Shown here one piece after another: positions 8,841 through 26,148 of a DNA stretch of 64,000 bases (positions are counted from its first letter, which is position 1; every line of letters starts with the position of its first letter). The stretch covers positions 365,458 to 429,457 of the forward strand of contig OZ244961.1 of the NCBI GenBank assembly GCA_965222715.1, read 5' to 3'. Below the pieces are notes generated by a model. It worked only from the letters and a program-made list of their open reading frames with translations. It was not told where the DNA came from and searched no databases. The DNA is from Minisyncoccota bacterium (GTDB taxonomy: Bacteria > Patescibacteriota > Minisyncoccia > Phycocordibacterales > JABMNX01). Position numbers and translations under genes: made by a program.

Positions 8841-11800
8841 TTACTTATCCTCTTCGTCGTCTCCGTCTGTTGTATCAAGCTCTTCTTGGAGTTCATGAAC
8901 CATGTGAGCTTTAGGGCTCTCAGAAAAACCGGTACCTGCTGGAATAAGGCGACCAATAATAACGTTTTCTTTAAGTCCATTCAGTGCGTCTGAGCTACCA
9001 CGTACGGCTGCATTAATGAGTACTCGAGTAGTGTTTTGGAATGATGCAGCTGAAAGGAAACTTTTTCGTGAAAGTGACACTTCTGTAATACCAAGAACGA
9101 GTGGCTCAGTGGTTGGTGCTGTTTTACCTTCATCTTTAATCCGTTGTAACTCTCGGTTAAGTTCTGCCTCTTCAATAACATCTCCAGCAGCAAATACAGA
9201 ATCTTCTTGTACTTTTACCTTTCGACGTGAAAACATCTGCTTCACAATAACCTCAATGTGTTTGCGTGAGATAGTCACACCCTGAAGCTCGTAAATCTTT
9301 GTTGCTTCGTTAATGATGTACTCTTGTGCGACCTCTTTACCAGCAAACTTGAAGAGATCATTAATATCAACTGAACCGTCAGTCATAACCTCACCCTTAG
9401 TAACCGTGTCTCCTTCTTTTACATGCACTGTTCTGAGGAAGTGAGCTTGGTACTCAATATCTTTTTTCTTCGCATTTTTGCTGCTTCCCTCTGGAATGAG
9501 AATAATCACTGTTCCTTTTTCCTCTTTTCGAATTTCACCTACGGTTCCTGAGATGCGTGCAACCACGGCTGGGTGTTTTGGTGAACGTCGTTCAAATACC
9601 TCGTTCACACGTGGAAGACCGTGCGTAATGTCTCCTCCAGCTGACGCAGCACCTCCTGAGTGGAATGTACGCATAGTAAGCTGGGTACCAGGTTCACCAA
9701 TAGCTTGCGCAGCCATTGTTCCCACTGCTTCACCAAGCTCAACTGGTGCATCAGTTGACATATCAATACCATAACAGGTTTGGCAGATACCGTTTCCTGA
9801 ATTACAGGTCATTGGAGATCGAACAAACACCTCTTCTACCCCTGCTTCTTCAAGTTCATGTGCTTCTTTTTTACGGATAAGATCGCCTTTCTTATAAAGG
9901 ACGTTTCCTTTCGCATCTTTCACGTCTTCTGCAAGGTAGCGGCCTTGAATATCACGAGCGATAGATACTTCAATACCAGATGCACTCTCTTTGGTGATAC
10001 GTACACCTTCTTTACTCTTACAATCTGCTTCAACAATAATAGCGTCTTGCGCGACATCAAAGAGTCGACGAGTTAGGTACCCGGCACTTGCGGTTTGAAG
10101 CGCGGTATCTGTAAGACCTTTTCGAGAACCGTGAGTAGTGGTGAAGTACTCAATTGGAGAAAGCCCTTCTTTCATTGAAGCAATAATAGGGAACTCGATA
10201 ACCTCACCACGTGGGTTTTGAATAAGACCTTTCATACCTGCCATTTGAGAGAGCTGGCTGGTTGAACCACGAGCACCAGAGACAAGCATATCGCTCACTG
10301 AGCCATTTGGATCAAGTGAATCAGCAAGGAGTTTTTCTACTTCATTTTTTGCATTATGCCAGATCTCAACTGAGAGACGGTGTCGTTCTGTTTTTGAGAG
10401 TAGCCCCTCATTATATTGATTGATCACCTCTTCACTCTTCTTCTTAGCTGCTTCAATAATCTCATCTTTTTTCTCAGGAATAATGAGGTCAGAGAGACTC
10501 CAGGTAATACCAGAGTGTGTTGCGTAGTTAAATCCAAACTCTTTAATCTTATTAAGTATTTCAGGAATTTGATCAAGTCCGTATCGCGCAATCAAATCAT
10601 CAACAAGTGCTGACATTTTCTTGTTTGTCATCACATCATTAATGAATGGGTAGTCACTTGGAAGTACACTGTTAAAGAGTAGTCGTCCTACAGACGTTTC
10701 AAACACCTCTCCGTTAAATACCTCGTACTTTTTACTATCAGTTGGAAGTACTTTAATTCGTGCACGGAAATTAACGGCCCCGAAGTCATATGCGGTAATT
10801 GCATTATTTGGTGTTGGGAAGAATTTATCCTCACCTTTCTCACCTTCAACAATTTTAGTCATCCAGTAACATCCAAGGATAATATCTTGTCGAGCACTGG
10901 TTACCACCTCTCCAGAACCTGGCTTAAGGATATTTTTGTTTGCAGACATGATTTCCTTTGCCTCAAGTTGCGCCTCTTCAGAGAGTGGTACGTGTACTGC
11001 CATCTGGTCACCGTCGAAGTCAGCGTTAAAGGCTGAACAGACGAGTGGATGAATTTGGATCGCGTTTCCTTCAATAAGAATTGGACGGAATGCTTGAATA
11101 CCCTGGCGGTGAAGTGTCGGTGCGCGGTTAAGGAGTACGTACTTACCTTCAATTACTTCTTCAAGAATTGCCCATACTTCTGGAATACCGTCATCAATGA
11201 GTCGTCCAGCCCCACGAATGTTATATGCGAGTTCTTTTTCAAGTAATTTTGAAATAACAAATGGACGGAAGAGTTCGAGTGCCATATGTTTTGGCAGACC
11301 ACACTCATCAAGTTTAAGGTGAGGACCAACAACAATTACTGAACGTCCTGAGTAGTCCACTCGTTTACCAAGAAGATTGCCGCGGAAGTACCCCTGCTTA
11401 CCCTTAAGGTAGTCTGAGAGAGACTTGAGTGGTCGGCGTTGGTACTGGCTCATTGCTGAGAATGCAGTGTTTCCGTGACGAATTGAGTTATCAATAAGTG
11501 CATCAACTGCTTCTTGAAGAATTCGTTTCTCATTTCGAAGAATTACTTCTGGTGCGTGAATATCCTTAAGTTTCTTAAGTCGGTTGTTTCGGTTAATCAC
11601 ACGACGGTAAAGGTCGTTGATGTCGGAAGATGCATGCCGCCCACCCTCAAGCGCAACCATTGGCCGAAGCATTGGTGGGATAACCGGAATGCGCACCATA
11701 AACATCCATTCAGGTCGAACGTTTGCATTAATCATTGAGTGGATAAGTGAGAGGCGTTTATTGAGCTTTGTTCGCTCAACAGCACCAGCTTTCTCTCGTC

Positions 11801-16374: not shown

Positions 16375-17022
16375 TTACTTCCCTTGAGACTTCTTCTCTT
16401 TCCATTCATCAATCTTTTTATGGTGCCCTGAAAGAAGTACGTCTGGCACTCGATACTTTTTCTTTTTCCAGGTAAGCACTTCGGGTCGAGTATACACTTC
16501 ATGTGCACTTACTCGCTCTTCTTCAAGGGAACTATACTTCCCAAGCACTCCAGGAATTTGTCGAGACACAGCATCAATAATAACCGCTGCTGGTAATTCT
16601 CCTCCAGTGAGCACGTATGGTCCGATTGACACACTCTGCGCTTCTAATATCTTCTCTACTCGGGCATCAATACCTTCATAATGTCCACATAAAAAGACAA
16701 TGTGTTTGTATTTCTTTGCATAGGTTCGAGCAGTGGTGTTTGTAAACTGAGTACCACCTGGAGAGAAGAAAACCACCAGTACGTTTTTCTTTTTTCCTAT
16801 TACTTTCTCAGCCGCAAGAAGCACTGACTCAGCCTCAAGAACCATACCCGGACCACCACCATACGGCTTTTGATCAACGCGCCTGTGTATATCTTTTGTA
16901 TAGTCCCGTGGGTTATAGAAAGATATTTTTATTTTTTTATCTTTTTGTGCACGTCCAAGAATTGAGGAGTTGAGATATCCTTCAATGCTTTCTGGGAATA
17001 ATGTAACGATATGAAAATGCAT
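16375..17022 (-). CDS. trmD: tRNA (guanine37-N1)-methyltransferase
   Basis: MHFHIVTLFPE..., SPGGTQF, KPYGGGPGMVL motifs of the SPOUT TrmD family. Confidence 0.93.
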   Translation of the reverse strand: MHFHIVTLFPESIEGYLNSSILGRAQKDKKIKISFYNPRDYTKDIHRRVDQKPYGGGPGMVLEAESVLLAAEKVIGKKKNVLVVFFSPGGTQFTNTTARTYAKKYKHIVFLCGHYEGIDARVEKILEAQSVSIGPYVLTGGELPAAVIIDAVSRQIPGVLGKYSSLEEERVSAHEVYTRPEVLTWKKKKYRVPDVLLSGHHKKIDEWKEKKSQGK

Positions 17023-17025
17023 AAC

Positions 17026-17060
17026 AAAAACCGTGATGTCTCAACGATACCACGGTTTTT
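17026..17060 (-). terminator. Hairpin plus U-run between KH-protein gene and trmD (possible terminator/attenuator)
   Basis: aaaaaccgtg...cacggttttt on minus strand. Confidence 0.3.
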
Positions 17061-17085
17061 GTATTTTTCTATTCTTTAAAAACTA

Positions 17086-17406
17086 TTAGAGTTTAAGATC
17101 ATCCATCGCCTCATCAACCGTTTTTGTTGCGCCGGAACCATGTTCTCCTCGACGCATACCACCCTCTGGCTCATTAATCTTCAAGTTTACACGAGCATCG
17201 TGTTTCATTCCTACAACACGAAGGAGTGTTCGAATCGCTTTTGCAGTGTTTCCTGAACGCCCAATAATCTTTCCCATGTCATCTGGATGTACATCAAGAG
17301 TAAGGAGTACTCCCATCTCATCAACAACACGATCAATTTTTACACTGTCGGGATTATCAACAAGGGCTTTTACAACATACTCAAGAAATTCTCTGTCCTG
17401 TTCCAT
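17086..17406 (-). CDS. KH-domain RNA-binding protein (YlqC/UPF0109 family)
   Basis: GKIIGRSGNTAKAIRTLLRV KH motif (GxxG). Conserved position downstream of rpsP. Confidence 0.85.
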   Translation of the reverse strand: MEQDREFLEYVVKALVDNPDSVKIDRVVDEMGVLLTLDVHPDDMGKIIGRSGNTAKAIRTLLRVVGMKHDARVNLKINEPEGGMRRGEHGSGATKTVDEAMDDLKL

Positions 17407-17515
17407 ATCACTACATTAAAAACTAAATTAGTAATGTGAGGCAAGCCTATGCCTGATTCACATGCTTAAACTATAGAAAAAAATATCTGAGTAAACAAGG
17501 GGGTGTGAAGGATAC

Positions 17516-18025
17516 TTACTCCTTCTTCTCTTCTACTTCTTCTTTTGGCTCTCCTTCTGTTGTTTCTTCTACTTTTTCTTCTGTCTTTTCTTCTTCCTTC
17601 TCTTCTGGCTTCTCTTCTGGTTTTTCCTCCACCTTTTCCTCTTCTTTTGCTTCTTCAGTAACCTCTTTAGTATCAGCTTCTTCTCCAGCTTCTTCTACTG
17701 GCGCTTCTGTGCTCTCTTCTTCAGTCTTTTCTTCGGCTTCTTCTTTAAGGATAGGAGATTTCTTAGGGAGTACATTTTTCTTCTCTCCCTTGATCACACC
17801 CTCTTTTACAAGGAGGTTGTGTACAGTATCAGATACCTGCGCCCCATTCCCAATCCAATGTAAAATCCGCTCACCATTAAGCGTTACTGAATCGAGCTTT
17901 GGATTATAGTTTCCAAGCATCTCAACGTGATCATTTGATTTTGGACCACGCTGTGACTCGGTCACCACAACCCGAAATGACGGGTCATTTTTTCTTCCAA
18001 CTCGGGCTAATCTGATTTTTAACAT
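17516..18025 (-). CDS. rpsP: 30S ribosomal protein S16 with ~80-aa Glu/Lys-rich C-terminal extension
   Basis: MLKIRLARVGRKNDPSFRVVV... core. Tail EEKPEEKPEEKEEEKTEEKVEE. Start set at MLKIRL. Confidence 0.9.
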   Translation of the reverse strand: MLKIRLARVGRKNDPSFRVVVTESQRGPKSNDHVEMLGNYNPKLDSVTLNGERILHWIGNGAQVSDTVHNLLVKEGVIKGEKKNVLPKKSPILKEEAEEKTEEESTEAPVEEAGEEADTKEVTEEAKEEEKVEEKPEEKPEEKEEEKTEEKVEETTEGEPKEEVEEKKE

Positions 18026-18100
18026 GGACATAAATCTACCAGAAGTACCTATCGACGTCAAATATCTATGTTATACTCCAAAAACATATTAGATTGATAT

Positions 18101-20035
18101 ATGACAAAAAACGACACACAACTGTTGGAAGGAATTATAAGCGTCACCAGCCGAGGTATTGGGTATGTAACCGCTGAAGGGTACGAGGAAGATATTGAAA
18201 TACCTGAAGGGCGTCTTAATACCGCTCTGCATCGAGATGTGGTGAGCATCTCACTTCTACCTGAAAAAAGTGAATACGGCCGTGTGCAGGGTGAGGTTGT
18301 TGAAATTATTTCACGAGCAAAAACTCGTTTTGTTGGTACTCTCGAAGAAGAAAGTGGTGTGCGATACCTCAAACCTGACAACTTTCGTTTTTACCCGCGA
18401 ATGCGTGTCACTGAGGGCTCTGAGAATATTGGTGAAAATATAAAAGTACTGGTTGAGCTTACTCGTTGGGAGAACCCAGAGCGAGACCCTGAAGGAAAAG
18501 TTGTTAGCGTTATTGGAGAGAAAGGTGAGCATGAGACCGAGATGCAGGCAATTCTCATTGGGCATGATTTTGATGTGAACTTCCCTCCTGAGGTTGAAGA
18601 AGAAGCAAAAAAAATTGGTGAGCATCGAGACATTACCTCTGAAGAAGTAGCGAAGCGTCGTGATATGCGTGACGTAACTACGTTCACCATTGACCCAGCT
18701 GACGCAAAGGATTTTGATGACGCACTCTCATTTAGAGAAGTTGGTGGAGATCATGTGGAGGTTGGTATTCATATTGCTGATGTGACTCACTACGTTTTAC
18801 CTGGTGGCCCAATTGATACTGAAGCGCAAGAGCGTGGGACTTCAATCTATCTTGTTGACCGCACTATCCCCATGCTTCCTGAAGTACTTTCAAACGATGT
18901 ATGTAGCTTAAACCCAAACGAAGATAAATTAGCCTTTTCTGCAATCTTCACCTTAAGTAAAGATGGTTCTGTGACTGACCGATGGTTTGGGCGTACTGTC
19001 ATTAACTCAGACAAACGTTTTACCTACCAAGAAGCGCAAGACAGGCTCGACACCAAAGAAGGTGAGTTTGCACAAGAGTTGTTAGTACTTGAAGATCTCG
19101 CAAAGAAACTTCGTGCTAAGCGATTCAAAGAAGGTTCAATTGGATTTGAACGTGATGAGGTGAAATTTAAACTTGATGAGCATGGCACACCAATTGATGT
19201 AGTGGCTAAAGAGCGACTTGAGACGATGATGCTTATTGAAGACTTTATGCTTCTTGCTAACCGCGAAGTAGCAAAACATCTCTTTGAATTGTGTGAAGAT
19301 AAGAAGCACGCAAACTCGGTGCTTATCTATCGTATTCATGATGCGCCAGATCCAGATAAAATTGAACAACTTGCAATATTCCTCCGAGCAATTGGTTATG
19401 ACCTTGAGGTGAAAAATGGCGAGGTAAGTTCAAAAGATATTAATAACCTTATTCAAAAAGTAAAAGATACTCCTGAAGAACGCTTGATTACAACCGCAAC
19501 CATTCGCTCAATGGCAAAAGCAGTGTACTCAACAAAAAATATTGGGCACTTCTCTCTTGCTTTTGATTTCTACACTCACTTCACCTCCCCTATTCGCCGC
19601 TACCCTGACATGATGGTGCACCGCATCCTTGCAAGTCATTTAGATGGTTCCCCTATTCCTCCCGAAGAATTACAAACATACAAACGATTGACACTTGAAT
19701 CATCACAAAAAGAGATTGAGGCTTCAGCTGCTGAACGTGAATCGATTAAATACAAACAGGTTGAGTATATGCAAAAACATGTTGGTGAAGAGTTTGATGG
19801 TGTAGTCACCGGTGTTGCTGACTTTGGCGTCTTTGTTGAAGAAGGAAAAACAAAAGCAGAAGGTATGATTCGCATGCGCGACCTTGGAGACGATTATTTC
19901 TCACATGACCCAAAACAGTACGCAGTTATTGGTGAGAGAAACCACAAAAAATACCAACTTGGCGACACACTTCGCGTAAAACTTGTTGAAGCAGATCTTG
20001 ATCAGCGCCAACTCACCTGGGTGCCAGTATCATAA
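18101..20035 (+). CDS. rnr: Ribonuclease R / RNase II family 3'-5' exoribonuclease
   Basis: RNB domain motifs (TIDPADAKDFDDALS, YLVDRTIPMLP), cold-shock-like N-terminal domains and C-terminal S1 domain (GVVTGVADFGVFVE). Confidence 0.9.
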   Translation: MTKNDTQLLEGIISVTSRGIGYVTAEGYEEDIEIPEGRLNTALHRDVVSISLLPEKSEYGRVQGEVVEIISRAKTRFVGTLEEESGVRYLKPDNFRFYPRMRVTEGSENIGENIKVLVELTRWENPERDPEGKVVSVIGEKGEHETEMQAILIGHDFDVNFPPEVEEEAKKIGEHRDITSEEVAKRRDMRDVTTFTIDPADAKDFDDALSFREVGGDHVEVGIHIADVTHYVLPGGPIDTEAQERGTSIYLVDRTIPMLPEVLSNDVCSLNPNEDKLAFSAIFTLSKDGSVTDRWFGRTVINSDKRFTYQEAQDRLDTKEGEFAQELLVLEDLAKKLRAKRFKEGSIGFERDEVKFKLDEHGTPIDVVAKERLETMMLIEDFMLLANREVAKHLFELCEDKKHANSVLIYRIHDAPDPDKIEQLAIFLRAIGYDLEVKNGEVSSKDINNLIQKVKDTPEERLITTATIRSMAKAVYSTKNIGHFSLAFDFYTHFTSPIRRYPDMMVHRILASHLDGSPIPPEELQTYKRLTLESSQKEIEASAAERESIKYKQVEYMQKHVGEEFDGVVTGVADFGVFVEEGKTKAEGMIRMRDLGDDYFSHDPKQYAVIGERNHKKYQLGDTLRVKLVEADLDQRQLTWVPVS

Positions 20036-20060
20036 AAAACCCTTTGCTGAAGCCACAATA

Positions 20061-20086
20061 AACGCCAAAGGTACCTTTGGCGTTTA
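20061..20086. terminator. Bidirectional intrinsic terminator, copy 2 of the recurring AAACGCCAARGGTACCYTTGGCGTTT palindrome
   Basis: aataaacgccaaaggtacctttggcgtttatt between convergent rnr and hydrolase genes. Confidence 0.7.
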
Positions 20087-20092
20087 TTATTT

Positions 20093-20677
20093 CTAGTTTT
20101 TAATATTTTGTATTATTTCTGGGAAGGTCTCTCCGAGGAAGTGACCACGATCAGTGAATGTTTCTAGTTTGGCCGTTGGTAGTGCCCTTTGATACTCTTC
20201 TGCATCTTTATAAGACACCACGTCGTCATCTTTTGAATGGTAAATATAGATTTCCTCAGCTTGTTCCTCGACTCCTACAATGCTTTTACCAAGATCAAAA
20301 CCAGCCACATACCCAAAACAACCTGAGACAAGATGCAGTTGAGTGACTTTCTTTGGAAAGGTATTTTCTGAAAGATACTTTGCGAGAAAGTTGGCACCAA
20401 GAGAGTGACCAATAAGAATTACTTCTTCAGCAAAAAACTTAAAATGTCGCTCAAACCAGATTTTCCACTCCTCATACCGAGCATCATCTTTAATCGGCAT
20501 ACTTAAGAAAAGTATTTCATAGTCTTCCCCAAGTTCATCTGCTAAGGTGTGCTTCCATCGCTTACTATGCTCCATCCGTGGATCACTCACCTCCATCTCA
20601 TCTCGAATATACGCAACGAACTCATCTCGCGAATTCCACGCTTCACCACCATGTATAAAAATTACCTGTTTTTTCAT
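20093..20677 (-). CDS. Alpha/beta-hydrolase fold serine hydrolase (YdeN/RBBP9-like esterase)
   Basis: MKKQVIFIHGG..., nucleophile elbow LIGHSLGANF, C-terminal His region. Start set at MKKQV; the ORF track extends to 20767. Confidence 0.6.
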   Translation of the reverse strand: MKKQVIFIHGGEAWNSRDEFVAYIRDEMEVSDPRMEHSKRWKHTLADELGEDYEILFLSMPIKDDARYEEWKIWFERHFKFFAEEVILIGHSLGANFLAKYLSENTFPKKVTQLHLVSGCFGYVAGFDLGKSIVGVEEQAEEIYIYHSKDDDVVSYKDAEEYQRALPTAKLETFTDRGHFLGETFPEIIQNIKN

Positions 20678-20687
20678 ATAGTATATT

Positions 20688-22907
20688 TTACTTCGCAACT
20701 TGAACCGCCTCGTCGAATTTGACTGAAAGGAGTTTTGAGACGCCATCTGAGCCCATGGTAACACCATAAAGAATTCCTGCGACTGACATAGTTTCTCGGT
20801 TATGGGTGATAAGAATAAGCTGTGTCTTTTTAGAGAGGTCTTTAATCATTTCACCGTATTTTCGTGAGTTTGCTTCATCAAGCGCTGCGTCTGTTTCATC
20901 AAGAATTAAGAATGGCGGTGGATTCACCTGGCTCATTGCAAAAAGAAGTGCAATTGAGGTAAGTGCACGCTCTCCTCCTGAGAGCATTTGAAGACCCTTC
21001 ACTTTCTTTCGTGGTAGTGATACAGAAATATCAATACCTGCTTCGGTCTCTTCCTCCTCATCAACCTGCTCTATTCCCTCTTCCTCATCTGAAAATACAC
21101 TCCTCTTTTGAGTCTTCTTTTGTGCAAGCACTGTAAGTGACGCTTCGCCACCACCAAAAAGAATCGAGAAGAAGTGTTGAAATTCTTTGTTAATTTTTGA
21201 AATACCATCGTTAAAACGCTTTGCGAGTTTTTCATCAAGGTCAGCAATAATACCTTTTAGTTTTTCTGCTGATTCTTCAAGATCAGCAATTTCCCGCTCG
21301 AGGAATTCGTCACGTTCACTCGCTTCTTGATACTCTTTGAGAATTTCCTCACTTGAACCACCACCTGCTTCTTCAACACGAATTTTTATCTTTTCAATCT
21401 CACGCTTACGCTTCTCCTGCTCACCCCGTGATTCACCGAGAGCTACTTCTTCAACTACTTCTGCATTTTGATACTGAAGCACCTCTCTTCCAACAAGTAC
21501 CGCACCTTCTTCCATATCTCGTTTAAATTCGTTCTCAATATGCTTAAGCACATCCTCATCTCGCTCAAGGTCGTGCAGCACTGCCTCGACTTTGCTTTTC
21601 TCAGTAGTGATACGAAATACTTCGCGCTCTGCTTCTCGCCCCTCATCTTTAGTTGCATCAATGTCTTCTTGCAGTTGTTTATATCGCTCTGCATAGGTGC
21701 GTTCTTTTTCTTCAATTTCTTTAAATTGCGCATCAAGGGTCATCTTTTCTTTTCGTAGTGTATCAAGGTCTGTGGTGCCAGCTTCCCCCTCATCTTTTCT
21801 ATGTTTGGTAATAAAGGAGGTAATAAGGTTACGTATTTTTTCTAGTTGGGTCTTTAGACCTGAAACTGAATCTGCTTCAACCGCAGCTTCTTTTTCTATA
21901 TCTTTTGCTAACGACTCAAGATCACTAAGAGGGACGGTGTGTGTTGTCACCTTTTTTGCATGTTCTTCTGCAAAGGCAATTTGCCCTTCAAGTCGTCCAA
22001 TTTCTCGAGAAAGCTCGTCTCTTTTAGTACGCACATCTGAGAGATTCTTCTCAGCTTCAAGCACTTCTTTGCCTTTCTCATTATCCTGAGAGGTGCGCGC
22101 AAGTGTCTCTCGAGCATTCTCCAAGTCTCTCACCAACTGCTGAAGTTGTTGCTTTGGTTCTTTACGCCTTGTCTCTATTTCTTCTTTTGCGTGTGTAATA
22201 TAGATTTCTTCACGTTTTAAGTATTCACGTAACAAATCCTTAAGATCGTCACGCATCTGTTTTGTCCTTTCTATTTTATCAACCTGACGTTTTAAGAATT
22301 TGAGGTGCGGCGCAATTTCTTTACGGAGTGAAGTAACATGAGAAATATTTTCATTAGTACGCTCTAGTTTACGTTCACTCTCCTTCTTTTTGTATTGAAA
22401 AATTTTAAGCCCGAGCGCGTCTTCAATCATTTCTCGACGATCTTTGACACTTGCTGAAAGAATTCTATCTGCCTCTCCTTGAGAAATAATATGGTGCCCT
22501 GTTGAGCCAACATTTGCACTTGCAAGAAGTTCAGCAACATCTTTGAGCCGCACTCGAGAACCATTAATTGAGTATTGATTCACCCCATCACGATGTACTT
22601 CACGTTCAATAGACACTTCATCAAAATCAATATCGAACAATCGAGAAGAGTTATCAAAAACCACCTTCACCAAGGCACGGTTTGAGCGCGGCATACTTTG
22701 AGAACCGCCCCAAATAAGATCTTCGCCGCGCTTCGTTCGCATTGATTTAAATGACTGCTCGCCAAGTACAAAACGAAAGGCTTCAGCGGTATTTGATTTA
22801 CCTGAGCCATTTGGTCCAACAATTGCAGTAATAGGAGAAGCGAACTCGAGTTCGCCTTTTTTTGCAAATGATTTAAATCCCGAAAGTTCGAGTGATTTTA
22901 GATACAT
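20688..22907 (-). CDS. smc: SMC-family chromosome segregation ATPase, short form (739 aa) with no recognisable hinge
   Basis: N-terminal Walker A MYLKSLELSGFKSF...GPNGSGKSN. C-terminal signature LSGGERALTSIALLFAM and Walker B ILDETDAALDE. Middle entirely coiled-coil-like. Confidence 0.85.
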   Translation of the reverse strand: MYLKSLELSGFKSFAKKGELEFASPITAIVGPNGSGKSNTAEAFRFVLGEQSFKSMRTKRGEDLIWGGSQSMPRSNRALVKVVFDNSSRLFDIDFDEVSIEREVHRDGVNQYSINGSRVRLKDVAELLASANVGSTGHHIISQGEADRILSASVKDRREMIEDALGLKIFQYKKKESERKLERTNENISHVTSLRKEIAPHLKFLKRQVDKIERTKQMRDDLKDLLREYLKREEIYITHAKEEIETRRKEPKQQLQQLVRDLENARETLARTSQDNEKGKEVLEAEKNLSDVRTKRDELSREIGRLEGQIAFAEEHAKKVTTHTVPLSDLESLAKDIEKEAAVEADSVSGLKTQLEKIRNLITSFITKHRKDEGEAGTTDLDTLRKEKMTLDAQFKEIEEKERTYAERYKQLQEDIDATKDEGREAEREVFRITTEKSKVEAVLHDLERDEDVLKHIENEFKRDMEEGAVLVGREVLQYQNAEVVEEVALGESRGEQEKRKREIEKIKIRVEEAGGGSSEEILKEYQEASERDEFLEREIADLEESAEKLKGIIADLDEKLAKRFNDGISKINKEFQHFFSILFGGGEASLTVLAQKKTQKRSVFSDEEEGIEQVDEEEETEAGIDISVSLPRKKVKGLQMLSGGERALTSIALLFAMSQVNPPPFLILDETDAALDEANSRKYGEMIKDLSKKTQLILITHNRETMSVAGILYGVTMGSDGVSKLLSVKFDEAVQVAK

Positions 22908-22948
22908 CCTCTATAGCTTACCGTTTTTAGGCGTATGCTTCCAGTGTA

Positions 22949-23641
22949 TTACCAGCCTTTTTTCTCAAGTGCTGCTCGAGCAGCTTCTTGTTCTGCTTCT
23001 TGTTTTGCTCGCCCAGTACCACGCGCGACAAGTTCTTTTCCTACATACACACCTACTACGAACGTCTTGTCATGATCTGGTCCCTTCTCATCAATAAGCT
23101 CATAACTTGGGGTGATCCCCGTGTGCTCCTGAGCTTGCTCTTGGAAATTACTTTTTGCGTCCTGCCAGAGACGTTTTTCAATTACCTCATCCATCAAATA
23201 AAACAAATTCTTCGATATAAATTGTGCTGCACTGTCATAGCCCTGATCAAGATAGAGTGCCCCTACAATTGATTCAAAGGTGTTTGCAAGAATATATTGT
23301 CGCGCACGACCTGTGTCTTGCGCTTCGCCTTTTGAAAGTAGTAGGTATTCATTTACCCCAAGTTTATTTGATGCCTCAGAAAGTGTATTGGTATTCACGA
23401 GTGCGGCGCGATACGCAGTTAAATCGCCTTCAGTTTTATCTGGATAAGTGTCAAAAAGAAATCGAGTGACGACAAGCTCAAGCACTGCATCACCAAGAAA
23501 CTCAAGACGCTCGTTGTGTTCAAAACCACTGTCTCGATGCTCGTTAATATATGAACGATGCGTGAAGGCTTGCTGTAAAAGATTGCTGTCTTTGAATGTA
23601 ACACCAATCACTTTTTGAAACTCATGTATGTCTTTTTCCAT
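22949..23641 (-). CDS. rnc: Ribonuclease III
   Basis: ERLEFLGDAVLELVV catalytic signature, C-terminal dsRBD. Confidence 0.93.
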   Translation of the reverse strand: MEKDIHEFQKVIGVTFKDSNLLQQAFTHRSYINEHRDSGFEHNERLEFLGDAVLELVVTRFLFDTYPDKTEGDLTAYRAALVNTNTLSEASNKLGVNEYLLLSKGEAQDTGRARQYILANTFESIVGALYLDQGYDSAAQFISKNLFYLMDEVIEKRLWQDAKSNFQEQAQEHTGITPSYELIDEKGPDHDKTFVVGVYVGKELVARGTGRAKQEAEQEAARAALEKKGW

Positions 23642-23771
23642 CCCGTTAGTGTTAGGACACCACTATGTTAAATATGGTGTCATTGGTTAAACTTTAAATA
23701 AATATTCACATTATTTCAATGGTTCGAGTCAGTGTCCGACGGCTACCTAAAGGTAGCCTAACACTAACGGG
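23642..23771 (-). promoter_or_regulatory. Long-range stem: 15-bp perfect inverted repeat (CCCGUUAGUGUUAGG / CCUAACACUAACGGG) enclosing the entire nusB-rnc intergenic spacer, abutting the rnc AUG; candidate RNase III processing/autoregulatory stem
   Basis: Arms at 23642-23656 and 23757-23771. Inner 7-bp hairpin ggctacc-taaa-ggtagcc. Stem 3' arm ends 1 nt before rnc start codon. Confidence 0.45.
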
Positions 23772-23779
23772 ATCCATGA

Positions 23780-24700
23780 TTACTTGTCAGTAGTATCTTT
23801 TTTCACTAGTTGGTTGATTGCAGTAGTGATAATCGGGAGAATATCATCATAAAAATTAAGGTCAAGGATGTCCGAAAGTTTAAACCATTTTGCGTCATCA
23901 AGACCACCTTTGTCCTCAGGAAGAGTGAGATCTTCAAATGGTGCTTTTGCAAGATAATACACTACCTGTTTTCGCACCTTACCCTTCTCCGGTTGGCTGG
24001 CAATATACTCATTGGTGCCAAGTTTTTTCTTCAATTCAACGGATATACCAAGCTCTTCTTTAACCCCACGGGCAATACCCTCTTGAATTTCTTCATTCTC
24101 TTGAATGTGTCCTTTTGAAAGTGTCCAGTGACCAAATACATCATGAACAAGTGCAAGATATATCTCTTCCCCATCTTGTGCGTAGACAACTGCACCACCA
24201 AGTCGTTCAATAGGCATCTCTTCATACGGCACCTCTTTTACCTTTTTCTTTTTTGAGGTTTCGTTCTTACCTGGCTCGCCAAGCTCTTTATACACAGCCC
24301 CGAGTACTCCATTTACAAATCGACCACTATTCTCTCCTCCAAATGTCTTTGCGAGTTCGATTGCTTCATTAATCGCAACCTTTGCTGGCACTTCTTCACG
24401 GTCAGCAAATAAAAGCTCGGCAAGCCCAAGCCGGAGTACATTACGATCAACCACTGAAATTTTCTCAATTGGCCACTCTGGTGCGGCTTTCTCTATGATC
24501 TGGTCGAGCTCATTTCGTTTTGAAAGCACTAAATCAAGAAGTCGTTTAGTGAATGAGGCATCATTTAATCCTGGCGCGAACTCTTCAGTATTTCGTGCAA
24601 GTGCTTCGTCAATATCAGCACTCTTCCCTTTTACATCATCAAAATCAAACTCAAAGAGAGTTTGAAGAACAATACTTCTGGAAAGGTGCCTATTTGCCAT
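23780..24700 (-). CDS. nusB: NusB antitermination factor fused to a C-terminal NUDIX hydrolase domain
   Basis: N-terminal ~150 aa NusB (LQTLFEFDF..., VDRNVLRLGLAELLF). C-terminal Nudix box GHIQENEEIQEGIARGVKEELGI. Confidence 0.85.
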   Translation of the reverse strand: MANRHLSRSIVLQTLFEFDFDDVKGKSADIDEALARNTEEFAPGLNDASFTKRLLDLVLSKRNELDQIIEKAAPEWPIEKISVVDRNVLRLGLAELLFADREEVPAKVAINEAIELAKTFGGENSGRFVNGVLGAVYKELGEPGKNETSKKKKVKEVPYEEMPIERLGGAVVYAQDGEEIYLALVHDVFGHWTLSKGHIQENEEIQEGIARGVKEELGISVELKKKLGTNEYIASQPEKGKVRKQVVYYLAKAPFEDLTLPEDKGGLDDAKWFKLSDILDLNFYDDILPIITTAINQLVKKDTTDK

Positions 24701-24749
24701 ATAAAAAGTAAGAAAACGAAAGGAACCAAAAACTCGTTACGGTACGAGT

Positions 24750-25064
24750 TTATTTCTTTGAGAGATTTTCTGGGTCGAGGTTTTGATTCTCTTTTGTCTC
24801 TGCTTGTGTGTCTTCTACCTCTCTTCCTTTCTCCTCGATACCCATTTCCTTGCGCTTTGCTGCCTGCTTTTCAGCTTTTTTCTCAGCGTGTGCCGCAACA
24901 TCAACCACCATTCGGCCCTTGTAGTGACCGCACTCTGGACACATTCGGTGTCGAAGGTGCTTTTCACCACAATGTGAGCACGTCGAAGTACGCGGCTCTT
25001 CGAGTCGCTGGTGGCTCCGACGTTTACCGGTAGCTGAACGGTTGATTCTCATTCGTACAGACAT
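24750..25064 (-). CDS. rpmF: 50S ribosomal protein L32 with Lys/Glu-rich C-terminal extension
   Basis: MSVRMRINRSATGKRRSHQRL... and CSHCGEKHLRHRMCPECGHYKG zinc ribbon. Start set at MSVRMR. Confidence 0.8.
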   Translation of the reverse strand: MSVRMRINRSATGKRRSHQRLEEPRTSTCSHCGEKHLRHRMCPECGHYKGRMVVDVAAHAEKKAEKQAAKRKEMGIEEKGREVEDTQAETKENQNLDPENLSKK

Positions 25065-25155
25065 TGCTAGATAGTATACAAATAAACGGCAAAAATACAA
25101 GCTTTTTAAAGTTTTTATACTGACGGGTATTTGAGAAAGGTATAGAAAAGTAAAA

Positions 25156-25180
25156 GCGGTGTCGCGCCATGCGACACCGC
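25156..25180 (-). terminator. Intrinsic terminator (minus strand) downstream of small Cys-rich ORF
   Basis: gcggtgtcgc-gccat-gcgacaccgc hairpin followed by UUUUACUUUUC on minus strand. Confidence 0.5.
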
Positions 25181-25204
25181 CTCCCCTGTGTGACTCTTGT
25201 CGGG

Positions 25205-25471
25205 TTATGCAGCCCGACGAAACCTTCCGAGTTCCTCGAGTGTGTAGGTTCTAGGCTTGAAGGTCTCGATGAGATCGAGGACCATCCTTGCCTCTTCTTC
25301 AGCATCGGTAAAGCGACGCACAAAATCGTCGCACCGATTAGTCGGCGAGGTGCATCCTTCATTGCAGTTGCTGCAGAGTTTGCAGACAGTGCTTTCAGGA
25401 ACCTCACGACTTCCCTCAGCTGAGAGAATGTCATACATCTCGTCCGATGCTGTTTCTTCTTCACTAAACAC
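25205..25471 (-). CDS. Small acidic Cys-cluster protein (88 aa), possible minimal YceD/DUF177-like protein upstream of rpmF
   Basis: Translation has CKLCSNCNEGC...NRC cluster. Position immediately upstream of L32 gene mirrors the yceD-rpmF arrangement. GC-elevated; low confidence that it is coding. Confidence 0.3.
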   Translation of the reverse strand: MFSEEETASDEMYDILSAEGSREVPESTVCKLCSNCNEGCTSPTNRCDDFVRRFTDAEEEARMVLDLIETFKPRTYTLEELGRFRRAA

Positions 25472-25545
25472 GCTTACCTCCCAAGTTTCTGGAAATTGAA
25501 TACAGGTTGTAGAAGAACAACCAAGGAGGGATTATAAAGTACATA

Positions 25546-26148
25546 CTACTTTCCGTCAACAGTAAGGAAGCTCTTCCTGTGAATAGCACACACACCATGC
25601 TGCATAATACGTTCATAATGTTTTTTTGTGCCATACCCCTTATGCGTTTCAAAACCATACTCTGGATACTGCACTCCAAGTTGCACCATTTTTCTATCTC
25701 GAGTTACTTTTGCGGCAATTGAAGCAAGAGCGATAAGAGGCTCTTTCTCGTCTCCTTTAATAATTGTTTTTTGATAGAAAAACTTCTTTGGTGCGTGCAG
25801 CCCTCCATCAAGAAGTAGCTGTGTTTTCTCTGGATTTTTTTGAAGCCGATTCAAGGCGCTGCTGATTGCTCTATGTAGTGCATACATAATTCCCTTACTA
25901 TCAATGATGTCTTGGGAGATGGATGTGGTTGTGTAGGAAATATACGTTGCTTGTTTAATATACCTCAGCCATTCTTCTCGCTTTTTTTCGGAAAGTTGTT
26001 TTGAGTCAGCTAGGTGGCGTGGAATCCTTCTTATATCTTTTCGTGCTACACATACCGCACCCACTGTTACTGGTCCCGCAACAGGACCTCTTCCTACTTC
26101 GTCAATTCCAATAATGTGAGTACAGTTCTTAGAAATTCTTTGTCGCAT
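25546..26148 (-). CDS. rnhB: Ribonuclease HII
   Basis: IIGIDEVGRGPVAGPV motif, 200 aa. Confidence 0.92.
   Translation of the reverse strand: MRQRISKNCTHIIGIDEVGRGPVAGPVTVGAVCVARKDIRRIPRHLADSKQLSEKKREEWLRYIKQATYISYTTTSISQDIIDSKGIMYALHRAISSALNRLQKNPEKTQLLLDGGLHAPKKFFYQKTIIKGDEKEPLIALASIAAKVTRDRKMVQLGVQYPEYGFETHKGYGTKKHYERIMQHGVCAIHRKSFLTVDGK

Follow-up and report, generated by a model that had tools for sequence, protein, structure and literature searches.

A complete NusB and a Nudix domain are joined in a single protein encoded on the minus strand of the window (the whole 64-kb stretch of DNA that was analysed), and NusB normally has this architecture throughout an entire class-level lineage. 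Comparison across the fused family shows that the catalytic positions of the Nudix domain have come under relaxed selection, with the fold and the binding-type residues kept under strong selection. The preferred reading, which is given about an even chance, is that the Nudix domain acts mainly as a binding module, non-catalytic or weakly catalytic, in the machinery of rRNA antitermination and RNase III maturation. The features of the locus are collected in Table 1.

Table 1. Features of the NusB-Nudix locus, with positions in the window
Feature	Position	Strand	Basis or remark
rnc (RNase III), downstream partner	22949..23641	minus	Pfam Ribonuclease_3 and dsrm
Structured spacer, fusion gene to rnc	23642..23779	minus	RNA folding; outside the protein
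NusB-Nudix fusion CDS	23780..24700	minus	Complete, 306 aa plus stop; ORF list
Nudix-fold domain, aa 164-302, probable Ap4A/Ap6A-hydrolase type	23795..24211	minus	Pfam PF00293, PDB sequence matches, Foldseek
Nudix box, aa 197-219 (GHIQENEEIQEGIARGVKEELGI), degenerate at box position 16	24044..24112	minus	Read directly from sequence
Linker, aa 141-163: GEPGK, Lys/Arg-rich run, VPYEEMP	24212..24280	minus	Conservation table, pLDDT
NusB domain, aa 1-140	24281..24700	minus	Pfam PF01029, TIGR01951, PDB and Foldseek matches
rpmF (ribosomal protein L32), start codon uncertain	24750..25064	minus	Immediately upstream; Pfam L32p

The reading frame of the fusion is single and uninterrupted over its 306 codons, and the first-pass annotation, which had described it as NusB, a Lys-rich linker and a NUDIX domain, agrees with the ORF list, the Pfam and TIGR01951 matches, and the disorder prediction. 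Both domains were present in all of the best 120 database homologs, which are proteins of ~300 aa sharing the N terminus MANRHLSRS. All 80 of the independent genome loci compared encoded a full-length product; in a Kaiserbacteria assembly, separate gene calling likewise gave NusB and NUDIX as one product of 303 aa. Within the Parcubacteria/Paceibacteria, at least 480 species-representative genomes have the architecture, including the closed chromosome CP060229, under the lineage names Kaiser-, Nomura-, Campbell-, Adler-, Taylor-, and Wolfebacteria and Paceibacterota. It had been called non-canonical, which holds relative to model bacteria and does not hold within the Parcubacteria/Paceibacteria, where these species representatives make it the standard form. 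Because identical architecture recurs on this scale, the mis-assembly or frameshift that had been raised as a possible objection is ruled out, and the fusion is a genuine gene. The probability that adjacent nusB and Nudix genes were joined here artificially, through misassembly or a frameshift introduced in sequencing, is vanishingly small, as the continuous frame is found in hundreds of independent genomes and metagenomes, a closed chromosome among them, and the linker at the supposed junction holds invariant motifs. No publication on a NusB-Nudix fusion was found, including for the Patescibacteria/CPR.

By sequence, the first 140 residues are a bona fide NusB at the equivalog level, close to the span of aa 1 to ~150 first proposed for a complete NusB. 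Pfam NusB (PF01029) covers aa 7-138 (E 3e-32, above the curated cut-off), and the NCBIfam equivalog model TIGR01951 (nusB) scores 121.2 bits against a cut-off of 88.35. PDB sequence matches of this half are NusB entries (1tzt and 3r2c), and its predicted structure, of seven helices at high pLDDT, matches the NusB of the NusB-NusE-BoxA complex in Foldseek (3r2c/3r2d, TMt 0.85). Canonical NusB from Escherichia coli, Aquifex aeolicus, and Thermotoga maritima thus matches this part of the fusion in both sequence and fold, and the core VPxKVAINEAIELAKxFG...FVNGVL is almost identical to that of E. coli NusB. Canonical NusB differs in lacking the ~165-aa C-terminal extension of tether and Nudix domain and in its gene order, which in the case of the fusion is rpmF-nusB-rnc-smc. 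No second NusB was found in the 64-kb window by phmmer. The window also has neither an rRNA operon nor a boxA, and the Rfam scan gave one tRNA only. By homology, the fusion protein would be expected to fill the role of NusB as the partner of S10/NusE on BoxA RNA. To our knowledge, the one well-known protein that joins a NusB-fold domain to an enzyme-fold domain directed to rRNA is RsmB/Sun, in which a NusB-like N-terminal domain precedes an rRNA m5C methyltransferase. Assignment of the fusion to RsmB/Sun was rejected: RsmB models score 17-50 bits against cut-offs of 269-540 (50 against 319 at the best match) and match the NusB half only, the methyltransferase domain is absent, and the NusB half is of equivalog level, unlike the NusB-like targeting domain of RsmB.

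In the linker, the motif GEPGK is invariant and the motif VPYEEMP is conserved. The Lys-rich stretch noted at first reading corresponds to SKKKKVK at aa 149-155, which is predicted to be disordered; pLDDT is below 50 at residues 142-155, and the model has a pTM of 0.52. The linker is therefore modelled as a flexible tether, with no fixed packing between the domains predicted. Within the basic run, the protein sequence is conserved and the nucleotide sequence is not. The heptamer A_AAA_AAG (24248-24254, minus strand) lies in frame at codons 149-151. Were this a dnaX-type -1 frameshift site, a NusB-only protein would be made alongside the fusion, and the -1 frame does stop after ~8 codons. Two products of this kind are highly improbable, however, as alternating AAG/AAA codons avoid the heptamer in most orthologs, and a run of Lys codons in an AT-rich genome gives it by chance. 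Programmed frameshifting at the linker was rejected because A_AAA_AAG occurs at only 12 of 81 loci (16 of 81 when A_AAA_AAA is included).

The NUDIX fold proposed for the C-terminal half was recovered by Pfam (PF00293, aa 169-283, E 4.8e-14, 52.9 bits against a curated cut-off of 21.1). The AF2 model of this domain has high pLDDT and matches many Nudix structures at a Foldseek probability of 1.00, and as modelled the domain is a member of the Nudix (alpha/beta/alpha) fold. Its best matches are the ApnA hydrolases: the top PDB sequence matches are CT771 of Chlamydia (4ilq), Ndx1 of Thermus thermophilus (1vc8), and the Ap4A hydrolases of Caenorhabditis elegans (1ktg) and Aquifex (aq_158, 3i7u), with human NUDT2 also among the best, and Foldseek gave a TMt of 0.86-0.90 for 3i7u, 0.86 for 1vc8, and 0.76 for 4ilq. 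Residue Lys196 is Lys or Arg in all 51 diverse fusions and Lys244 in 47 of the 51, and Trp192, Thr193, Tyr248, Trp272, and Tyr284 are nearly invariant. In HMMER alignments, from which the homology-based mapping of residues to known enzymes was made, Lys196 and Lys244 correspond to Lys36 and Lys83 of the C. elegans Ap4A hydrolase, both of which presumably bind phosphate. The fusion also has in common with the ApnA hydrolases a WTxPKG-like motif carrying the first Lys, a Tyr at box +13, and a C-terminal L-x-F-P/Y helix motif. A Tyr ~16-18 residues past the box is a marker of the ApnA subfamily, as reported by Dunn and co-workers in 1999; in the fusion, box +17 is Gln236, which is variable (H/S/P/D), and it is the conserved Tyr232 at +13 that aligns with the Tyr of the Aquifex, Ndx1, and CT771 enzymes. 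The closest relatives in sequence and structure, together with the conserved Lys pair, one ahead of the box (WTxPKG) and one in the beta-hairpin after it, suggest that the domain belongs with the ApnA subfamily, whose known members differ from it in being stand-alone proteins of ~130-150 aa with no NusB fusion.

Two other Nudix families were considered. RppH (E. coli NudH) resembles the fusion in being a Nudix protein directed to RNA 5'-polyphosphate ends, the kind of end that a domain tethered to NusB would meet, but orthology to RppH was rejected on scores of 20.5 bits against a cut-off of 118 (NF001936) and 13.7 against 139 (NF001937). The NrtR Nudix domain (3gz8) was the second-ranked Foldseek match; membership of the NrtR-type regulators was rejected, as the fusion lacks a wHTH domain and pairs its Nudix domain with NusB, so the likeness is one of analogy only. 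No other Nudix paralog was found in the 64-kb window by phmmer or by a relaxed Nudix-box regular expression.

The Nudix box had been described as intact, which is not the case. Compared with GX5EX7REUXEEXGU, the box GHIQENEEIQEGIARGVKEELGI matches at G1, E7, R15, E19, E20, G22, and U23, so that four of five canonical box residues (E7, R15, E19, and E20) are kept; at position 16, Gly212 (codon GGG, 24065-24067) takes the place of the Glu of 'RE'. The ApnA hydrolases named above all have R-E at box 15-16, whereas R-G is found in the window protein and varied residues in the fused family. The window protein thus lacks the complete box by which a competent Nudix hydrolase is recognised. When the conservation of the REx2EE Glu residues was checked, as the first-pass annotation had proposed, all three Glu of REUxEE were present in only 9 of 51 diverse fused proteins compared with 16 of 21 among the stand-alone relatives (Fisher p = 4.3e-6), a set that lies further from the query than the fused proteins do and may include gene fragments. 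Among close homologs, 33 of 120 keep all three. Position 16 alone is Glu in 13 of the 51 fused proteins and in 16 of the 21 stand-alone relatives, with E, V, K, G, I, and A all seen among fusions. Among 120 homologs at least 66% identical, it is the seventh most variable of 136 domain sites, and its residue differs in 26 of 120 nearest-neighbour pairs. Positions 7 and 19 are likewise relaxed in the fused proteins, not in the stand-alone relatives, and the Glu at position 20 is nearly invariant in the fused family. The human Ap4A hydrolase was crystallised with ligand as an E58A protein (4ijx), and by our numbering of the NUDT2 sequence E58 also falls on box position 16. In E. coli RppH, the Nudix motif comprises residues 38-60 and E53A is the standard catalytically inactive mutant (PMC6061791); with this numbering, E53 falls on box position 16, and the equivalent of this residue is absent from the fusion as Gly212.

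These observations bear directly on whether the domain is an active, tethered hydrolase, an RppH- or ApnA-like enzyme brought by NusB to nascent rRNA. Such an enzyme would leave a monophosphate in place of the leader's 5'-triphosphate or NpnN/NAD cap, for decay of the excised leader and recycling of NusB/S10, or would clear Ap4A or alarmones locally. The nearest relatives in sequence and structure are all active Ap4A/Ap6A hydrolases, the window protein retains the four box residues named above, and a fully canonical box set is found in 33 of the 120 close homologs and in 8 of the 51 diverse fused proteins, so catalysis may persist in some lineages and residual activity in the window protein is possible. 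The operon partner is RNase III, in P0248 a related Nudix domain is joined to RNase E/G, and NUDT2, an Ap4A hydrolase, can act on RNA 5' ends and trims PPP-RNA (PMC8616924). Even so, an active hydrolase is considered rather unlikely: Gly at position 16, and the place of this position among the fastest-evolving sites, would be unexpected if the residue were essential to metal binding or catalysis; Ala at the same position inactivates RppH (PMC6061791); positions 7 and 19 are relaxed in the fused proteins only; the RppH models are far below their cut-offs; and stand-alone NUDIX genes, which lie near the locus in the genome of a close relative, could supply the activity separately. Binding is favoured over catalysis because the Glu at position 16 is gone and the catalytic sites are relaxed, with binding-type residues kept.

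As the annotation had stated, the fusion gene lies directly upstream of rnc with a structured stretch between them. The spacer of 138 nt has a predicted RNA minimum free energy of -52.3 kcal/mol (z = -5.7; none of 200 shuffles was as stable), and its closing helix pairs sequence just past the end of the fusion gene's reading frame with the region of the rnc start. Comparably structured spacers were found at 9 of 32 loci tested, the spacer is shorter than 40 nt in about half of loci, and no known RNA family was found in it by the Rfam scan. The presence of rnc directly downstream on the same strand was constant, at 80 of 80 loci. On the upstream side, rpmF gave a weak Pfam L32p match from a truncated query; at one locus (L081) the homologue was called as an L32p protein of 100 aa, and tblastn matches were obtained in many loci. 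A functional link between antitermination or rRNA processing and hydrolysis of a nucleotide or cap had also been suggested. The part concerning rRNA processing is supported because rnc follows the fusion at every one of the 80 loci; hydrolysis is the weakest part, given Gly at box position 16 and the relaxed catalytic positions.

Under the preferred binding-module reading, the protein would be a functional NusB to which an ApnA-type Nudix domain is attached by a tether of ~20 residues, disordered and basic, and it would be co-transcribed with RNase III. The Nudix domain would be descended from an active hydrolase of dinucleoside polyphosphates or RNA 5'-polyphosphates, in which the metal-binding Glu residues of the box were relaxed and the WTxxKG Lys, a second phosphate-aligned Lys, and several aromatic residues were kept. 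It would then hold a polyphosphate-bearing ligand while NusB/S10 occupy BoxA. The most plausible ligand is the 5' end of the nascent rRNA leader, bearing a triphosphate or an NpnN cap; a free dinucleoside polyphosphate is less plausible. The complex by which the 5' leader is kept near RNA polymerase would thereby gain one more contact for anchoring or stabilisation, and the leader would be held until its 3' partner emerges and the RNase III processing stem forms. Retention of the 5' leader near polymerase until pairing is an existing model (PMC6614801).

Precedents for parts of this mechanism are available. NrtR has a perturbed Nudix signature and a nucleic-acid-directed partner domain, as does the fusion, and its Nudix domain, having lost catalysis, binds the former substrate class as a ligand-binding effector module (PMC2330246); it is of the ADP-ribose pyrophosphatase lineage, with a winged-helix DNA-binding partner and a repressor function, whereas the fusion is probably of the ApnA lineage with an RNA-binding elongation factor as partner. 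SuhB, of the inositol monophosphatase fold, is an enzyme-fold accessory subunit that stabilises NusB/E and is needed to integrate it into the rRNA antitermination complex (PMC6614801), in functional analogy to a domain attached to NusB; its fold is unrelated to that of the Nudix domain, it is a separate polypeptide, and it binds the AR2 domain of NusA. A more far-reaching proposal, which is unlikely as a whole, is that the silenced ApnA fold is a built-in antitermination subunit that captures the 5'-polyphosphate or NpnN-capped end of nascent pre-rRNA, or senses a dinucleoside polyphosphate or alarmone, takes on the stabilising role of SuhB in these reduced genomes, and makes both antitermination and processing by RNase III responsive to nucleotide stress or to the state of the 5' end.

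The Nudix fold might alternatively be a purely architectural module, a scaffold for protein-protein or RNA-surface contacts that has no small-molecule or 5'-end ligand, such as a SuhB-like stabiliser of NusB/E on polymerase or a dock for RNase III. Erosion of catalytic residues within a domain that is strongly conserved as a whole (mean column entropy of 0.93 compared with 0.83 for the NusB half) is consistent with such a role, as are the two conserved linker motifs and the reuse of the NusB-Nudix unit as a module inside the larger proteins P0205, P0269, and P0133. Scaffolding alone is nevertheless quite doubtful, since the best-conserved residues (Lys196, Lys244, Trp192, Tyr248, Trp272, and Tyr284) are common to active relatives and align to ligand-contacting positions, and they do not point to a new surface patch.

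Work on NusB and the rRNA antitermination complex has been confined almost wholly to E. coli and a handful of other model bacteria. Here, an extra NusB domain has been kept for a very long time under strong selection across a class of ultra-small, host-dependent bacteria with reduced genomes, and its retention implies that the machinery of rRNA transcription and maturation is built differently there. Should the domain be a hydrolase that has been silenced and now reads dinucleoside polyphosphates or RNA 5' ends, this would be the first instance of a Nudix pseudo-enzyme within a transcription elongation complex, and one small soluble protein would offer a handle on the way in which the 5' leader is retained until RNase III processes it. 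Database sources label the fused proteins plain "NusB", an annotation by which half of the protein is disregarded.

The NusB–Nudix gene of the window is a single unbroken ORF, in which Pfam assigns residues 7–138 to NusB (112 bits, cut-off 23; E 3e-32) and residues 169–283 to NUDIX (52.9 bits, cut-off 21; E 4.8e-14). The NCBIfam equivalog for NusB, TIGR01951, also matched (121 bits, cut-off 88), and the specific Nudix enzyme models of NCBIfam, including RppH, NudC, MutT and NudI, all scored far under cut-off for the query. Searches of solved structures returned NusB of Thermotoga, Aquifex, E. coli and Mycobacterium for the N-terminal half, and Chlamydia CT771, the Thermus Ap6A hydrolase Ndx1, and the C. 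elegans and Aquifex Ap4A hydrolases for the C-terminal half. The ORF, two domains and Lys-rich linker of the first-pass annotation are thus correct.

The best 120 matches in a collection of 5.8 billion proteins, 66–100% identical to the query, are ~300 aa long and all contain both Pfam domains. A scan in which each species was represented by a single genome found relatives encoded in at least 480 genomes; the best 80 of these all hold full-length fusions and are Parcubacteria/Paceibacteria-type assemblies, with Kaiser-, Nomura-, Campbell-, Adler-, Taylor- and Wolfebacteria and Minisyncoccia among their names and the closed chromosome CP060229 among their number. A separate gene call in a Kaiserbacteria assembly again gave a NusB + NUDIX product. 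Together with linker motifs that are invariant across homologs (GEPGK, a basic run, then VPYEEMP), these findings exclude the frameshift or mis-assembly that had been raised as a possible artefact. The architecture, described earlier as not canonical, is therefore real but, given its spread over species, not rare. The pair is already visible in precomputed Pfam annotations, so it is present in databases, although the source labels of the 120 homologs read only "NusB"; neither PMC nor bioRxiv gave anything relevant when their full texts were searched for NusB together with Nudix, with or without CPR/Patescibacteria terms. We regard the protein as a lineage-wide NusB bearing an eroded ApnA-hydrolase-type Nudix domain. 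The linker also contains an in-frame slippery heptamer of the dnaX type, A_AAA_AAG, whose -1 frame ends after ~8 codons. Programmed dnaX-like frameshifting was rejected; the heptamer occurs in just 12 of 81 loci and is thus probably a side effect of encoding lysine in an AT-rich genome.

The Nudix box, initially read as intact, is not. When GHIQENEEIQEGIARGVKEELGI was aligned to GX5EX7REUXEEXGU, four of the five canonical residues were present and position 16, the first Glu of REUxEE, was Gly212 (codon GGG); the characterised relatives in the alignments all carry R-E at this site. The same position is residue 53 of E. coli RppH, in which the Nudix motif covers residues 38–60 and E53A serves as the standard catalytic-null mutant (PMC6061791). 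The human Ap4A hydrolase structure 4ijx is of an E58A mutant crystallised with ligand. By our own numbering of the NUDT2 sequence, we take E58 to be box 16 too. That the Nudix domain of the fusion is an active hydrolase is unlikely: although most of the box is kept, a minority of orthologs have a fully canonical one and a related Nudix domain is joined to RNase E/G in a distant relative (P0248), Gly212 falls on the very site whose E53A change inactivates RppH (PMC6061791).

Box 1 Gly and box 20 Glu do not vary among the 120 close homologs. Box 16 (35 Glu, 32 Val, 18 Lys and others) ranks 7th in variability among the 136 domain sites, and in 26 of 120 cases a protein and its nearest neighbour (mean identity 87%) have different residues there. 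When the Nudix half by itself served as query, an exhaustive HMMER search recovered a narrow family of 162 clusters (50% identity, E below 1e-10), and 51 diverse full-length fusions from this search were compared with 21 stand-alone relatives, some of which may be fragments. Conservation of the REx2EE glutamates, proposed earlier as a check, did not hold: all three are kept in 33 of the 120 close homologs, and in 9 of 51 fusions against 16 of 21 stand-alone proteins (Fisher p = 4.3e-6), the latter set being more distant from the query. Acidic residues were found at box 16 in 13 of 51 fused and 16 of 21 stand-alone sequences, at box 19 in 34 and 20, and at box 7 in 42 and 21, respectively. W192, T193, K196, K244, Y248, W272 and Y284 are near-invariant in both sets, with Lys or Arg at K196 in 51 of 51 fusions and at K244 in 47. 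These two align with K36 and K83 of C. elegans Ap4A hydrolase, presumably phosphate-binding residues; a purely architectural Nudix domain, without ligand, is considered quite improbable. Mean column entropy is 0.93 for the Nudix half and 0.83 for the NusB half, i.e. about equal conservation. With variable box glutamates and near-invariant residues elsewhere, this indicates, at the level of sequence comparison, strong purifying selection on the Nudix domain overall and a relaxation specific to the catalytic glutamates.

Unusual, putative architectures with relatives of this domain were also seen, each in a single-member cluster: RNase E/G + Nudix (P0248, 1074 aa), HEPN_Swt1 + STAND NTPase + TPR + NusB + Nudix (P0269, 1219 aa, on a 4-kb contig), cold-shock domain + NusB + Nudix (P0205), NusB + Nudix + Rho_N (P0133) and sigma70 region 4 + DnaA_C HTH + Nudix (P0240). 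At an 80%-identical Kaiserbacteria homolog locus (L081), two extra stand-alone NUDIX genes (9503–9946 and 10527–10912) lie just past smc and a Ser_hydrolase gene; the window has a Ser_hydrolase-like ORF, with no further Nudix gene at the matching site or elsewhere in its 64 kb.

AlphaFold2 (76-sequence alignment; mean pLDDT 82.7) predicted two confident domains, seven helices followed by a Nudix alpha/beta/alpha sandwich. Residues 142–155 between them have pLDDT below 50 and the model pTM is 0.52, so the linker is predicted to be a flexible tether with no fixed domain packing. For the Nudix half, the nearest folds that Foldseek found in the PDB were those of the Ap4A hydrolase of Aquifex (3i7u, TMt 0.86–0.90), Ndx1 (0.86), CT771, the Ap4A hydrolases of C. 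elegans and humans, and the diadenosine polyphosphatase MutT1/Rv2985 of mycobacteria; 3gz8, the non-catalytic Nudix domain of NrtR, came at rank 2. The NusB half matched NusB of the Aquifex NusB–NusE–BoxA complex (TMt 0.85).

By analogy with NrtR, the NusB-tethered Nudix domain is proposed to act chiefly by binding a ligand that carries a polyphosphate. Effector-binding Nudix domains were argued for in NrtR from a perturbed box, a kept fold and pocket and a nucleic-acid-directed fusion (PMC2330246); the window protein shares the perturbed box and conserved fold and pocket, with NusB as partner. Experiment upheld that argument: NrtR proteins with perturbed signatures are inactive yet ADP-ribose-responsive, and restoring the signature of Slr1690 raised kcat 600-fold (PMC2330246). 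The most plausible ligand would be the 5' end of the nascent rRNA leader, bearing either a triphosphate or an NpnN cap. NusB sits on BoxA of this leader, and that position, the RNase III operon partner and an ApnA-hydrolase ancestry would together favour such an end. NUDT2, of the ApnA hydrolase family, acts on PPP-RNA as well (PMC8616924). The antitermination complex has been proposed to have a delivery role, in which 5' regions stay close to the polymerase until 3' partners emerge to give the RNase III stem (PMC6614801); a grip on the leader 5' end would strengthen this role. The E. coli enzyme-fold protein SuhB is required for stable NusB/E integration into this complex (PMC6614801), and a covalently attached Nudix domain could stabilise it comparably. 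The analysis demonstrates the architecture, its distribution and synteny, the fold class, the tether and the selective erosion. The fusion would surprise Nus-factor researchers, and the mechanism that we infer (binding, ligand identity and role in the complex) offers a cleanly testable hypothesis.

At all 80 loci rnc (RNase III) lies directly downstream of nusB·nudix on the same strand, usually in the order rnhB–rpmF–nusB·nudix–rnc–smc, and the identities of the window neighbours are backed by Pfam. The spacer is <40 nt, or the genes overlap, in about half of loci, which is consistent with co-transcription. The structured leader first noted between the two genes was upheld by folding of the window spacer, which forms a very stable structure closed by a long helix between the sequence just past the nusB·nudix stop codon and the rnc start/RBS region. 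Of 32 related loci whose spacers measure 40–400 nt, 9 show comparable structure, which is therefore recurrent, not universal. The E. coli rnc leader is a known RNase III autoregulatory/processing site, and the window spacer looks like a possible site of either kind. The hairpins near rpmF suggest that the transcription unit begins before this gene. Neither an rRNA operon nor a boxA was found in the 64-kb window.

Features of the window around the NusB–Nudix gene
Feature	Position	Strand	Details
nusB·nudix	23780–24700	-	306 aa
Gly212 codon	24065–24067		box 16
A_AAA_AAG	24248–24254	-	Lys-rich linker
nusB·nudix–rnc spacer	23642–23779	-	138 nt, -52.3 kcal/mol, z = -5.7
Palindromic hairpin (AAACTCGT..ACGAGTTT)	24730–24751		49-nt rpmF/nusB·nudix gap; terminator-like on plus strand only
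Terminator-like hairpin	25152–25184	-	upstream of rpmF; much stronger than 24730–24751
Gene run	16375–26148		TrmD-like, S16, RNase R-like, smc, rnc, nusB·nudix, L32, RNase HII
S16-like protein	17516–18061	-	181 aa
RNase R-like	18101–20035	+	
Ser_hydrolase-like ORF	20093–20767		
SMC	20688–22907	-	739 aa (747 aa in L081)
L32	24750–25100	-	ORF ~100–116 aa
dnaE		opposite	after RNase HII gene

RNA-processing and ribosome genes are found throughout the run. Bacterial SMC is typically roughly 1,150–1,200 aa, and the far shorter window protein implies a much shortened coiled-coil arm. L32, usually about 60 aa, has a long low-complexity Glu/Lys-rich C-terminal tail in the window, as does the S16-like protein.
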